A stretch of 64,000 nucleotides of DNA, from the NCBI RefSeq assembly GCF_044324875.1, contig NZ_CP172185.1; one strand, given 5' to 3'. Shown here one piece after another: positions 10,731 to 13,973 of this stretch. How positions within the stretch are numbered: the first letter of the stretch is position 1; the number at the start of each line of letters is the position of its first letter. Source of the DNA: Escherichia coli. GTDB taxonomy: Bacteria > Pseudomonadota > Gammaproteobacteria > Enterobacterales > Enterobacteriaceae. The notes beneath the pieces were generated by a model. It was not told where the DNA came from. It made no database searches and worked only from the letters and a program-made list of their open reading frames with translations. Both the position numbers and the translations under genes were made by a program.

Positions 10731-10751
10731 GCAGTCAGTTCGTAAGTCAGA

Positions 10752-10782
10752 AAGCCGCCGACATGTTCGGCGGTTTTTTTTG
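10752..10782 (+). terminator. Rho-independent terminator of the nuo operon
   Basis: GC-rich hairpin agccgccgaacatgttcggcgg-type stem (gccgccgacatgttcggcgg) followed by T8, immediately after the nuoN stop. Confidence 0.75.
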
Positions 10783-10796
10783 GTGCCCTGACCCCA

Positions 10797-11300
10797 TCAC
10801 CCAACAATAACCGTCAGCGCATGATTCCCTTGTCGCAGCATACGTCGATATGCACTAATCAGCTTTTCCATATCAAGCATGATCGAAGCAAAGAGCTGCC
10901 CCTCTAACTCTTCTGAAAAGGTCACACCAGGGTAAATCTCCATTTCATTGAGTCGTTTAATGGAAAACTGTTTACGCAGCTCACTTCGATCCAGTGATTC
11001 CAGGCGATCGATTGTCGCGGCTAACTCCTGATTCCAGGTCAATCCCAGGAAGCCATCTATGCCATCTTCGAGGCTGTGTTCACCAAGCACGGCACGACTC
11101 AGCGGATCATTCTTCGCGGGATCAAAAGCAGAGGTGCCTGTCAGCCCAAAGTGTAAAAAATCCCAGCGTTTATCAATATCCAGTCGGCGTAATCCTGAAA
11201 GCGTGTCATGAATATTGTCCATTAAGGGTTTTTCAGTAGACTCAAGCAGTTGGTTAATCTTTTCTGAGTCAATTTCTGCAAAATAGCCAATCATTCCCAT
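10797..11300 (-). CDS. yfbM: DUF1877-family protein YfbM
   Basis: 167-aa ORF; translation recognised as YfbM. Confidence 0.8.
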   Translation of the reverse strand: MGMIGYFAEIDSEKINQLLESTEKPLMDNIHDTLSGLRRLDIDKRWDFLHFGLTGTSAFDPAKNDPLSRAVLGEHSLEDGIDGFLGLTWNQELAATIDRLESLDRSELRKQFSIKRLNEMEIYPGVTFSEELEGQLFASIMLDMEKLISAYRRMLRQGNHALTVIVG

Positions 11301-11402
11301 TTTATTTTCCTCCGTTGAATTTCATGTTTTGCATCTTAAAACAGACGAGGGAAAATAAAATGTACATGTCGCTTTTTCTGGACTCGCCTCGAGAAATTTT
11401 TA

Positions 11403-12374
11403 TTATTTACTGTTGTATAACAAAGTTATAACCCCATCCACTACCTGAGCCATTTTCTGATAATTCAATCTGTCTGCGGTATCACCGGGCAAGTGGTATT
11501 GTTTATTACGATAAAAAGCGGTGTCAGTAATCATTACTGCGGGAATATCGTGTTGCCAATAATTCAGGTGGTCAGAGAAATCAATACCGGGAATAAACCC
11601 TGGGGCATTCATAGAATAAACAGATAAATCCCGGGATGACAACAATGCCGCTTTTAGCTGACGAACGGCGTTGATATCCTGCATTCTGCCGACCACGGCA
11701 ATAAAGTCTCCCCGATCGGGATAAAGCCAGGACATTGCCGGGTAAGGGTAATCCTGACTACCAGGCGCAGAGTCGTAATAGCCAATCATCTCCAGCGCTA
11801 TCATTAATCTCACTGGACGCTCAAGCGAAGCTGCATGTACCGCGCTCCCCATTTCATCGCTACGAAAGAAGGGCGGTTCTTCCGACGCATAGGCGACCAG
11901 CTGCACGCCAGTTTTCGGTGCTTGCTGCTGTAACAAACGTGCCAGTTCGAGTAATCCTGCCACGCCGCTGGCGTTATCATCCGCGCCCGGCGTATAGGTC
12001 AATTGATCATTTTCATAACTACTGACAGAGTCATAGTGCGCACCAATAATAATCAGCGGTCCATCGGCAGGACCATAATCAGCAACAATGTTTTTGTAGG
12101 GGCCACCCGCAATGGGGACGTCCTGCGAGGTAACTCTGGCACCGCTACTGACAAAGACCTCTTTTATATACTCTGCGGACCTATTCAGATTATCAATATT
12201 GTCGGCACTACGTGGATGTACAGTTTGTGTAAGATAACGAACTGTTTTTTCTAATTGCTCAGGACTTGCGTGTCGGGGCGTTGGCGGTAATGCATTGACC
12301 CAAGGTTGGTAAAAAATAATAAAAGGAAGCGATAGTAGTAATGATATAAAATAAAGAGGTGTCATTTTTTTCAT
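11403..12374 (-). CDS. yfbL: M28-family aminopeptidase-like protein with N-terminal signal peptide
   Basis: 323 aa; hydrophobic N-terminus (MKKMTPLYFISLLLSLPFIIF) and a peptidase M28-like core (GAHYDS..., ASEEPPFF). Confidence 0.8.
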   Translation of the reverse strand: MKKMTPLYFISLLLSLPFIIFYQPWVNALPPTPRHASPEQLEKTVRYLTQTVHPRSADNIDNLNRSAEYIKEVFVSSGARVTSQDVPIAGGPYKNIVADYGPADGPLIIIGAHYDSVSSYENDQLTYTPGADDNASGVAGLLELARLLQQQAPKTGVQLVAYASEEPPFFRSDEMGSAVHAASLERPVRLMIALEMIGYYDSAPGSQDYPYPAMSWLYPDRGDFIAVVGRMQDINAVRQLKAALLSSRDLSVYSMNAPGFIPGIDFSDHLNYWQHDIPAVMITDTAFYRNKQYHLPGDTADRLNYQKMAQVVDGVITLLYNSK

Positions 12375-12764
12375 ATGTAAATTATCAATAAAAGGCGTTA
12401 TTTTATAATTATTTATAATGAGTTGTGAGTGTTTATTTTATTACGGTTGGTAGAGATATACAAAAAGTATTTTTTTACAGTGGGTTCGCTATTTTAAAAA
12501 GGAATTCATATGAGGAAAAAATATAATTATGTTATTTATTGGCAGATTGAATTGACAGGGGGCAGAAATCTGAGGGTAAGAAAAGTCAGCAACTACAATC
12601 CACTACATCAACAGACCAGAAATCGCGTGCCGCGATACGCTGGAAATACCCGTAGATTGAACTGGCGGATGGTGTGACTGACATCGGTCAGTGATGACTT
12701 TTTAGCAAACTATGTTCGATCAGTCAGCATATTTGCTGACTGGTCGAATTGACTAACAATGATG

Positions 12765-13973
12765 TTAACTTACTCTTTTGCCTGATGCTCTATTTTGGGG
12801 TTGTGAGTGTTTTATTTCCAAGTCTCTATAATAATCATTGATATTTGCATCGCCATATTTATCTAAATAACAATTTCTGTTTACCTGTCGATGTTGAAAA
12901 TCAATTTCGTACTGCTCTTCTGCTGAATATTTTTTAAATCTGTCAGCATAGTTTTTTAATAACGTATAGTGGGCGCTGTCAGAATTACTTTCCCTTTGTT
13001 CAATCACTTCCTGGGCTGCCATGCACACAAATGCACCGCAACTTTGGCTTAAATATTGCTGAAGATCGGCATGTAAAAATATTATCTCGGGTTCAGTTAA
13101 ATGAACTTTTATATTATTATTCGACATTTCTCCCATGAGTTCAGAATTAAAACTATTAATGATACGCTTAAGTGAATTTTCTTTTTCATGGCCTAGTGCA
13201 CGTAATGAGTTGAATATGACGCATTTTATTTGTTGTGTGTTATTTTTTTCATTAACTATTTTTTGTAGCGAAACTAATATCCAGTGTCCGCCAGTATTTA
13301 TGGGGAATAACTGGACTTCTTTCGGCCATGATGGATCGCTCTTAATATTATCATTGAGAGCGATTTCCAGGTAAGTGCTGTTGGAATTGGGGAGGTAGAA
13401 ATCAGTAGGATAATTGACTTGAGTATTTTTTGCATTAGCGGCTATCTTTTTAAGATAGCAAGCTATTTCATCTGTGGTTAATTGACGATTTTTATCCCAG
13501 AAGTTTGTCCCATCGCTCAGTTCATTATTCTTATCATTTAAAAGTACCTTTGAAAGCGACTGTTTTTCTGATATAAGAGGAATGTCCTCACCGATAATTG
13601 TCATTAATTTCGAAGGGGAGAATAGTTTTTTGAACAGGAGATCATCTGAATCATGTGATTTGAGGGGGTGTTTGGTTGCGGTATGTGCCAAATTATATAA
13701 TTTTAAACAGGCATTTTTAATAAGTCGGATAATCGATAGGGTCTCATTTGTTGGGTTTCTAACAATATGGTAAAGAATATCTTCAGCTTTTTTCCCAAAT
13801 TCATCATAACCTAACGCAATGTTATGCAGTAACTCAATGCTTTCTTCATCTCCGGATAACGCTGTTTTTTTTAAAGACTGCAGTAATTCATCGGTCACAG
13901 TAAATTTTTCTGCAAATGTCTGACTGAGTTGGGTTTGAGATAATTGACAATAATTGCTGACAACTGTAACCAT
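12765..13973 (-). CDS. elaD: ElaD deubiquitinase (CE-clan cysteine protease)
   Basis: 402-aa ORF in AT-rich DNA; catalytic-type motifs GHWILVSLQ (His) and CGAFVCM (Cys) typical of Ulp/CE-clan proteases. Confidence 0.85.

Follow-up and report, generated by a model that had tools for sequence, protein, structure and literature searches.

K-12 is a misleading reference for the nuoN-elaD locus of Escherichia coli: indel polymorphism around yfbM, yfbK and elaD

Positions 10731-13973 of the 64-kb stretch of Escherichia coli DNA analysed here (the window) very probably represent the most frequent E. coli form of a small and highly polymorphic neighbourhood extending from nuoN to rbn, with three independent indel polymorphisms accounting for its gene content. 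All three variable sites of the window show the state that is commonest in E. coli. It is misleading to measure the nuoN-elaD locus against K-12 as the reference; the differences are ordinary, already catalogued pan-genome variation, and there is nothing unusual at either the nuoN-yfbM or the yfbL-elaD junction of the window. Breakpoints, remnants, population frequencies and outgroup states were observed directly. Frequencies refer to 5,426 RefSeq complete E. coli genomes, which are a biased sample, and the distribution over the E. coli tree was inferred from a few named strains. Outgroup sampling was thin, comprising the four loci obtained by a YfbM scan of species-representative genomes (E. 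albertii, E. whittamii, Escherichia sp. MOD1-EC7003 and SCPM-O-B-8794, the last likewise a non-coli Escherichia), with no representative of E. fergusonii, Salmonella or E. coli.

The window carries, in this order, nuoN, yfbM, yfbL, elaD and rbn; these names follow Pfam matches and the RefSeq annotation of strain 135, which is nearly identical to the window here. The conserved left flank is formed by nuoN (9273-10730, + strand), with which the NADH dehydrogenase I operon ends; this open reading frame is annotated in both strain 135 and K-12 and is 98.4% identical to K-12. Four genes follow on the - strand: yfbM (10797-11300; intact, 167 aa; Pfam DUF1877, E = 1.7e-35) and yfbL, encoding an M28 family metallopeptidase (11403-12374; intact, 323 aa; Pfam Peptidase_M28, E = 2.5e-26), both annotated in strain 135; elaD (12765-13973; intact, 402 aa), assigned by Pfam to the ElaD/SseL CE-clan deubiquitinases; and, as the conserved right flank, rbn (ribonuclease BN; 14164-15081), mapped onto the window from the annotation of strain 135.

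In MG1655 (NC_000913.3) the annotated order is nuoN-yfbP-yfbO-yfbN-yfbM-yfbL-yfbK-elaD-rbn, the stretch from elaD to nuoN being b2269-b2276. The initial annotation had given this order from elaD to nuoN and had staked its reading beforehand on it; the order given was correct, and it was confirmed in a K-12-like genome as well. Over the b2268-b2276 region the window and MG1655 share the flanks (the nuo operon and rbn-elaA-elaB-menF), the order and orientation of yfbM, yfbL and elaD, the nuoN terminator and the hairpin between yfbK and elaD, but the window lacks a 2,561-bp yfbNOP block and approximately 1.54 kb of yfbK. Searching the entire 64 kb by tblastn with the K-12 proteins gave no match to YfbN, YfbO or YfbP, and for YfbK only tiny remnants, with no intact gene between yfbL and elaD. 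The absence of yfbN-yfbP claimed in the initial annotation was thus borne out, while its statement that yfbK is missing was inexact, given that fragments amounting to approximately 185 bp remain. Divergence from K-12 is approximately 1.6% for nuoN, 3% for yfbM and 5% for yfbL (only 95.2% identical), and identity to MG1655 across the window is 96-98%, in agreement with the earlier assignment to a non-K-12 lineage. Strain 135 (NZ_CP080260.1) has a gene order and breakpoints identical to those of the window, at 99.1% identity over positions 9500-15500. Over positions 20000-44000 (24 kb), no complete E. coli genome reached 99% identity to the window, the best being NRZ14408 with 98.7%.

At the left junction, nuoN is followed by an intrinsic terminator (10749-10781, + strand) consisting of a GC-rich hairpin and eight T residues, with a folding energy of -26.6 kcal/mol (z = -4.69; none of 200 shuffled sequences was as stable). 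A simple terminator scan missed it because the stem runs into the T-run, and folding confirmed it; all E. coli and outgroup loci that were compared retain it. The distance from the T-run to the yfbM stop codon (10797-10799) is exactly 15 bp, the spacing given previously as an upper bound. BLAST breakpoints and junction sequences delimit an uninterrupted nuoN-yfbM junction of 17 bp, TTTGGTGCCCTGACCCC (10779-10795), at which K-12 carries the 2,561-bp yfbP-yfbO-yfbN block, with 39.8% GC as compared with 51.4% for the window. The intact junction was found in 4,209 of the 5,426 genomes (78%), and yfbNOP in 946 (17%), K-12 among them. A homologous uninterrupted junction of 17-18 bp is present, almost base for base, in E. 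whittamii and SCPM-O-B-8794, neither of which has yfbNOP; the E. albertii contig stops 8 bp beyond yfbM, so that this junction lies outside it. Comparison of junction sequences revealed no remnant of yfbNOP in the 17 bp, which do not resemble either end of the block. At the same site, MOD1-EC7003 and the E. coli strain ETEC6335 carry another block, related to but different from yfbNOP, with yfbO/yfbN-like genes and an SMI1/KNR4 gene. The SMI1/KNR4 gene belongs to the immunity-like SUKH group.

The junction of the window is most likely the ancestral empty site and no scar, since its 17 bp are homologous to the sequence of two outgroup species and common to 78% of E. coli; K-12 would then carry an insertion. 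The window would thus have kept the ancestral junction between the terminator T-run and the yfbM stop codon, while K-12 and approximately 17% of E. coli would have acquired the low-GC yfbP-yfbO-yfbN block laterally at this point. Among 1,015 genomes matching yfbNOP, 985 carry copies at least 99% identical to K-12, suggesting a recent origin in a single lineage. The yfbN-like and SMI1/KNR4-like cargo of MOD1-EC7003 means that the site may have been polymorphic since the ancestor of the genus, which makes the deep polarity uncertain.

The right junction has a different history. The yfbL-elaD spacer (12375-12764) comprises 390 bp with 35.4% GC, matching its earlier description as AT-rich and about 390 bp long. 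Its beginning (12375-12509; GC 29-36%) aligns with yfbK-bearing genomes and corresponds to the former AT-rich intergenic region between the divergent yfbL and yfbK. It is followed by three yfbK fragments on the + strand (12510-12694), collinear and in the expected position and orientation. The 5' fragment (12510-12634), aligned to K-12, SMS-3-5 and 19AR1724, corresponds to approximately nucleotides 1-132 of the gene; it retains the start codon, and its translations show that 2-bp and 5-bp deletions have shifted the frame and that the lipobox cysteine is gone. A 55-codon open reading frame at 12510-12677 was rejected as a small gene, being this frameshifted yfbK start without lipobox. Next comes an internal piece of 20 bp (12635-12654), identified by collinear blastn-short and fuzzy matches, which agrees with K-12 nucleotides 1456-1475 at 18 of 20 bases and, by tblastn, with YfbK residues 486-491 at all six. 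The terminal 40 bp (12655-12694), placed by alignment and ending in a TGA stop at 12692-12694, match YfbK residues 564-575 at 11 of 12 positions by tblastn; in approximately 1,550 genomes this end is the sole yfbK match. Between the convergent yfbK remnant and elaD, a self reverse-complement BLAST revealed an inverted repeat (12714-12749) that folds on both strands (+ strand, -27.3 kcal/mol and z = -6.9; - strand, -21.9 kcal/mol and z = -4.6) and is probably a bidirectional terminator.

Intact yfbK adjoins yfbL in E. albertii, E. whittamii and Escherichia sp. MOD1-EC7003, and because the gene is intact in these three other Escherichia species the spacer represents a true deletion scar. The proposal that both junctions are indel scars therefore holds for yfbL-elaD, with its yfbK remnants, and most likely fails for nuoN-yfbM, with its outgroup-like sequence; likewise, the suggested inspection for gene fragments turned up yfbK pieces at the former and no yfbNOP pieces at the latter. 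Among the 5,426 genomes, 2,514 have intact yfbK and 2,375 (44%) the composite three-fragment scar. O157:H7 is one of the latter and differs in having, in addition, an internal deletion or frameshift in yfbL, and 99% of the length of the scar query was also matched in B-ZidR, a derivative of E. coli B. YfbK is a vWA-domain protein and a predicted lipoprotein, as read only from its signal-peptide sequence. Its gene, ancestral to the genus, would have been lost through an old deletion that left a decayed start, the 20-bp piece and the terminal 40 bp. As it now stands, the loss resembles two deletions, of approximately 1,323 bp and 213 bp; the 20-bp piece, collinear, in frame and matching at 18 of 20 bases, could also be filler DNA, in which case a single deletion would suffice. 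At the yfbK deletion breakpoints and the ends of yfbNOP, a search for microhomology or direct repeats gave nothing convincing (at most 1 nt) that would indicate a mechanism of deletion or insertion. We infer the order of events at the locus, a single origin of the yfbK scar allele (which approximately 44% of E. coli genomes now carry) and dissemination through homologous recombination in the conserved flanks.

The initial annotation had regarded the junctions as the kind of site where accessory cargo tends to sit. This applies to nuoN-yfbM in other strains (yfbNOP, or the block of ETEC6335 and MOD1-EC7003), and to neither junction of the window; what the window does carry as laterally acquired cargo is elaD, which had been overlooked. 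Alignments with the outgroups and with the B2-like E. coli strain 19AR1724, together with the GC profile, delimit a segment of approximately 1.5 kb and 35.7% GC (12669-14160), which replaces a yfbK-rbn spacer of approximately 140 bp in other Escherichia species and in 19AR1724. The gene itself has 34.7% GC. It is absent from all four outgroup loci and from 19AR1724, the spacer of which is homologous to the outgroup spacers; with presence defined as at least 80% query coverage, elaD was detected in 4,186 of 5,426 E. coli genomes (77%). In an ancestor of the non-B2 E. coli, an elaD segment of approximately 1.5 kb and 35% GC would have displaced the original yfbK-rbn spacer and, with it, roughly the last nine codons of yfbK.

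ElaD of the window scores above the Pfam thresholds for ElaD_SseL-like_N (PF22103, 162 bits), Peptidase_C48 (PF02902, 107 bits) and ElaD-SseL-like_C (PF22102, 96 bits), and aligns with K-12 ElaD without gaps over its full length of 402 aa at 91% identity. Identical in both proteins are the motifs GGHW and SQSCGAF, which we take to be the sites of the catalytic His and Cys of ElaD. The product is thus predicted to be an ElaD/SseL CE-clan deubiquitinase, an activity demonstrated biochemically for K-12 ElaD only (PMC1847702). According to published work (Catic et al. 2007, PMC1847702; Front Microbiol 2025, PMC12575377), most E. coli carry elaD and B2/ExPEC strains lack it. The intact elaD of the window is as in most non-B2 E. 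coli, and the frequency of 77% fits this picture. PMC1847702 makes no mention of yfbK, and a term search of PMC12575377 gave no occurrence of yfbK, rbn, flanking sequence or deletion; the low-GC replacement segment of approximately 1.5 kb and, in other Escherichia species, the empty spacer in its ancestral form were worked out in the present analysis. In the literature we found nothing specific on polymorphism of yfbK or yfbN-P.

Alternatively, the K-12 arrangement, carrying yfbK and yfbNOP, could be taken as ancestral for E. coli, with the window lineage having lost both, which would make both junctions deletion scars. For yfbK this is true, and the yfbN-like cargo at nuoN-yfbM in another Escherichia species shows that cargo there is old; yet the 17 bp, devoid of yfbNOP remnants, resemble the junctions of E. 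whittamii and SCPM-O-B-8794, the empty junction outnumbers yfbNOP by 78% to 17% of E. coli genomes, and the block combines a GC content of 39.8% with the near-uniform identity to K-12 that suggests a recent, single-lineage origin. We consider a loss at both junctions unlikely. An artefactual origin of the difference from K-12, through errors of assembly or sequencing, is refuted by the recurrence of the same arrangement and breakpoints in thousands of independently completed genomes and by strain 135, which is collinear with the window over positions 9001-16000 (7 kb) at 99.2% identity; nothing was found in its favour, and its probability is negligible.

It is also highly improbable that a mobile element, such as an integrase- or transposon-borne islet, actively integrates at the junctions, with the window representing an unoccupied attachment site. 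At least two cargos do share the same boundaries, the T-run of the nuoN terminator on the left and the position right after the yfbM stop codon on the right; an atypical base composition (yfbNOP, 39.8% GC) and an alternative cargo (ETEC6335) occur at one site, and copies of IS1, IS2 and IS903 lie within the region in some strains. However, the yfbNOP and ETEC6335 blocks encode only YfbN, YfbO, YfbP or an SMI1/KNR4 protein and lack integrase, transposase and recombinase genes; no tRNA lies close by, the junction sequences have no flanking direct repeats, and neither a mobility gene nor a target-site duplication was found at any junction of the locus. Shared boundaries are equally well explained by selection for the terminator and the yfbM frame, combined with homologous recombination in the flanks. 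An ancestral empty nuoN-yfbM junction next to a yfbK deletion scar and an acquired elaD segment is the reading we prefer.

Hotspots of chromosomal integration are a general concept for the E. coli pan-genome, known from comparative genomics such as Touchon et al. 2009. The nuoN-yfbM site resembles such hotspots in that strains differ in the low-GC cargo found at a single fixed position between conserved core genes, and differs in the very small size of the blocks (approximately 2-2.6 kb), which come without tRNA, integrase or repeat, and in being empty in the window. One might picture nuoN-yfbM as a recombinase-free exchange point that swaps small low-GC blocks among Escherichia lineages, with the absence of yfbO driven by phages, a scenario we regard as doubtful. 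The sole functional lead is indirect: according to a 2025 preprint, K-12 knockouts of yfbO and yfbL are resistant to phage N4, and whether a strain naturally has these genes might influence the host range of phages. Should the preprint hold, the absence of yfbO from approximately 80% of E. coli, the lineage of the window included, could alter susceptibility to N4-like phages, and the recurrent decay of yfbK and yfbL could, if the scenario is true, be part of the same selective story.

The importance of these observations is small, and lies in showing once more that K-12 should not be taken for the default E. coli: its nuoN-yfbM insertion is a minority state, and the state of the window is the common and probably ancestral one. 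For annotation, the 390-bp 'intergenic' spacer in approximately 44% of E. coli genomes can be recognized as a yfbK pseudogene remnant, and elaD as lying on an acquired low-GC segment of approximately 1.5 kb that would have rewritten the end of yfbK. For lineage typing, the locus offers four easily scored indel markers, namely yfbNOP, yfbK, elaD and the yfbL deletion.

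Six-frame ORF analysis placed nuoN at 9273-10730 on the plus strand, followed on the minus strand by yfbM (10797-11300; Pfam DUF1877), yfbL (11403-12374; Pfam Peptidase_M28) and elaD (12765-13973; Pfam ElaD/SseL N-terminal domain and Ulp1/C48 domain). The latter three were named after E. coli strain 135, the closest complete genome (99.1% identity over 9500-15500), in which yfbM, yfbL and elaD are annotated, then rbn, elaA, elaB and menF. The order in MG1655 (NC_000913.3) is rbn (b2268), elaD (b2269), yfbK (b2270), yfbL (b2271), yfbM (b2272), yfbN (b2273), yfbO (b2274), yfbP (b2275) and nuoN (b2276), as the initial annotation had stated from elaD to nuoN, and a K-12-like genome agreed with it. 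Identity to MG1655 was 96-98% along the whole length of the window, which is therefore not K-12, as had been proposed. Using K-12 YfbK, YfbN, YfbO and YfbP as tblastn queries against the 64 kb, no match was obtained except for short yfbK remnants. The reported absence of yfbN-yfbP was thus confirmed, while that of yfbK holds for the intact gene, remnants of which persist in the yfbL–elaD spacer as revealed by tblastn and alignment.

Past the nuoN stop codon, a strong hairpin is followed by eight T (10749-10781; -26.6 kcal/mol, z = -4.7 by folding), and the distance from this T-run to the yfbM stop codon is exactly 15 bp. BLAST alignment to the K-12-like locus stops at 10778 and restarts at 10796, leaving a junction of 17 bp, TTTGGTGCCCTGACCCC, in the window versus 2,561 bp in K-12. 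The K-12 block is limited on the left inside the terminator T-run and on the right directly before the yfbM stop codon; its GC content is 39.8% (window: 51.4%), and neither a flanking repeat nor a mobility gene was found for it. The uninterrupted junction was present in 4,209 of 5,426 complete E. coli genomes (78%; a 101-bp probe matched over 80% or more of its length), and yfbNOP in 946 (17%; coverage at least 80%), nearly all copies being at least 99% identical to K-12. Both junctions of the locus had been taken for indel scars. Here, however, two non-coli Escherichia loci, those of E. whittamii and strain SCPM-O-B-8794 (identity of the latter to the window: 96% in nuoN, 86% in rbn), also have an uninterrupted junction with a homologous 17-18 bp, and the window therefore most likely displays the ancestral, empty state, with K-12 as the outlier that carries an insertion. 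Some doubt on this polarity deep in the genus arises because other cargo occupies the site in two genomes. ETEC6335 carries, between the limits that also bound the K-12 block, yfbO-like and yfbN-like genes (83% identity to K-12) together with an SMI1/KNR4 (SUKH-type) gene (positions 4001-5889 of its locus), and Escherichia sp. MOD1-EC7003 carries related cargo. The suspicion that such sites attract accessory cargo is thus borne out for nuoN–yfbM in these two genomes, but neither junction carries cargo in the window.

The yfbL–elaD spacer (12375-12764; 390 bp, 35.4% GC) is a genuine scar; its length, like the 15-bp distance at nuoN, had initially been described accurately to the base. Inspection for remnant gene fragments, which had been suggested, recovered pieces of yfbK at 12510-12694. 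The former yfbL–yfbK divergent intergenic region (12375-12509) aligns with that of yfbK-positive genomes and is followed by a 5' remnant (12510-12634) that corresponds by alignment to the initial ~132 nt of yfbK. The start codon of this remnant is retained, but owing to deletions of 2 bp and 5 bp the frame is shifted and the lipobox lost (N-terminus MRNKNIIMLLMSSLILSGCG when intact versus MRKKYNYVIYWQIELTGG in the window). An internal piece (12635-12654), collinear and in frame, matches K-12 yfbK nt 1456-1475 in 18/20 bases and YfbK residues 486-491 in 6/6 (tblastn). The final 40 bp of yfbK including the stop codon (12655-12694) match residues 564-575 in 11/12 (tblastn), and folding and self match revealed an inverted repeat (12714-12749) that forms a hairpin where the yfbK remnant and elaD converge. 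Given these three collinear fragments, the scar as it now stands seems to reflect one deletion of about 1,323 bp and another of about 213 bp, whose breakpoints showed no useful microhomology. As yfbK adjoins yfbL in E. albertii, E. whittamii and Escherichia sp. MOD1-EC7003, its absence represents a loss, and since SCPM-O-B-8794 has lost yfbK too, with other endpoints, this loss is recurrent in the genus. A scar of the same three fragments is found in O157:H7 and, with a 141-bp probe across all three covered to at least 80%, in 2,375/5,426 complete E. coli genomes (44%); yfbK is intact in 2,514 (46%). That strains so different share an identical composite scar argues for a single, old event. 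Besides this scar, yfbL of O157:H7 (3404-4021 of its locus) carries a further lesion of about 330 bp, either an internal deletion or a frameshift, which recurs in many more genomes (those of the 95%-coverage class).

At the four outgroup loci (E. albertii, E. whittamii, SCPM-O-B-8794 and Escherichia sp. MOD1-EC7003), elaD was absent, with a yfbK–rbn spacer of about 140 bp instead. 19AR1724, a B2-like E. coli without elaD, has a spacer homologous to these and almost the same as the MOD1-EC7003 one. Genomes with elaD, the window among them, lose homology to this ancestral arrangement within the final ~27 bp of yfbK and regain it at the rbn stop codon; between these limits lies a segment of ~1.5 kb (about 12669-14160) with 35.7% GC. 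Based on these spacers, the homology limits and the low GC content, elaD is an acquired segment whose left end rewrote the last ~9 yfbK codons. Its presence in 4,186/5,426 complete genomes (77%) agrees with published reports in which elaD occurs in most E. coli, is missing from B2/ExPEC strains and is proposed to have been acquired horizontally (PMC1847702; PMC12575377). The window encodes a full-length ElaD that shares 91% identity with its biochemically characterised K-12 counterpart and has unchanged active-site motifs.

All three variable sites of the window are in the state most common in E. coli. This variation is ordinary: thousands of annotated genomes show it, and the polymorphism of elaD has already been published. 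The single functional lead comes from a preprint (10.1101/2025.09.29.679331), according to which K-12 becomes resistant to phage N4 when yfbO or yfbL is knocked out and regains sensitivity upon complementation; because of the yfbO phenotype, natural absence of yfbO might affect phage host range.

The best match differs by region: strain 135 for 9500-15500, and NRZ14408 (98.7% identity) for the 24 kb at 20000-44000, over which no complete E. coli genome reached 99% identity. The lineage of the window is sparsely sampled or mosaic. Divergence among most E. coli strains compared was 2-8% in yfbM and yfbL (10797-12374) versus about 1-2.5% in nuoN. The yfbL 5' end and neighbouring spacer fall into two deep haplotypes, one comprising the aligned yfbK-scar genomes (window, strain 135, O157:H7) and the other the three aligned yfbK-intact genomes. 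In elaA-elaB (15146-15967), the B2-like strains 5132 and 19AR1724 are only 89.4% identical to all other E. coli compared, to which Escherichia sp. MOD1-EC7003 is 97% identical; this divergence, far above that of neighbouring genes, may reflect introgression.

Elsewhere, BLAST against K-12 gave overlapping matches and short secondary ones at 38721-39129, around the 3' end of rpnE and the pseudogene ypaA, which suggests that a small repeat or rearrangement sets this spot apart from K-12. Between glpQ and inaA (46846-50684), about 3.6 kb have no counterpart in K-12, where this interval holds only the yfaH pseudogene; matching genomes are annotated there with an MFS transporter, a hypothetical protein and a LysR regulator. 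The region 46500-51000 was covered to at least 80% in only 710/5,426 complete E. coli genomes, making it rarer than any feature of the nuoN–elaD locus.
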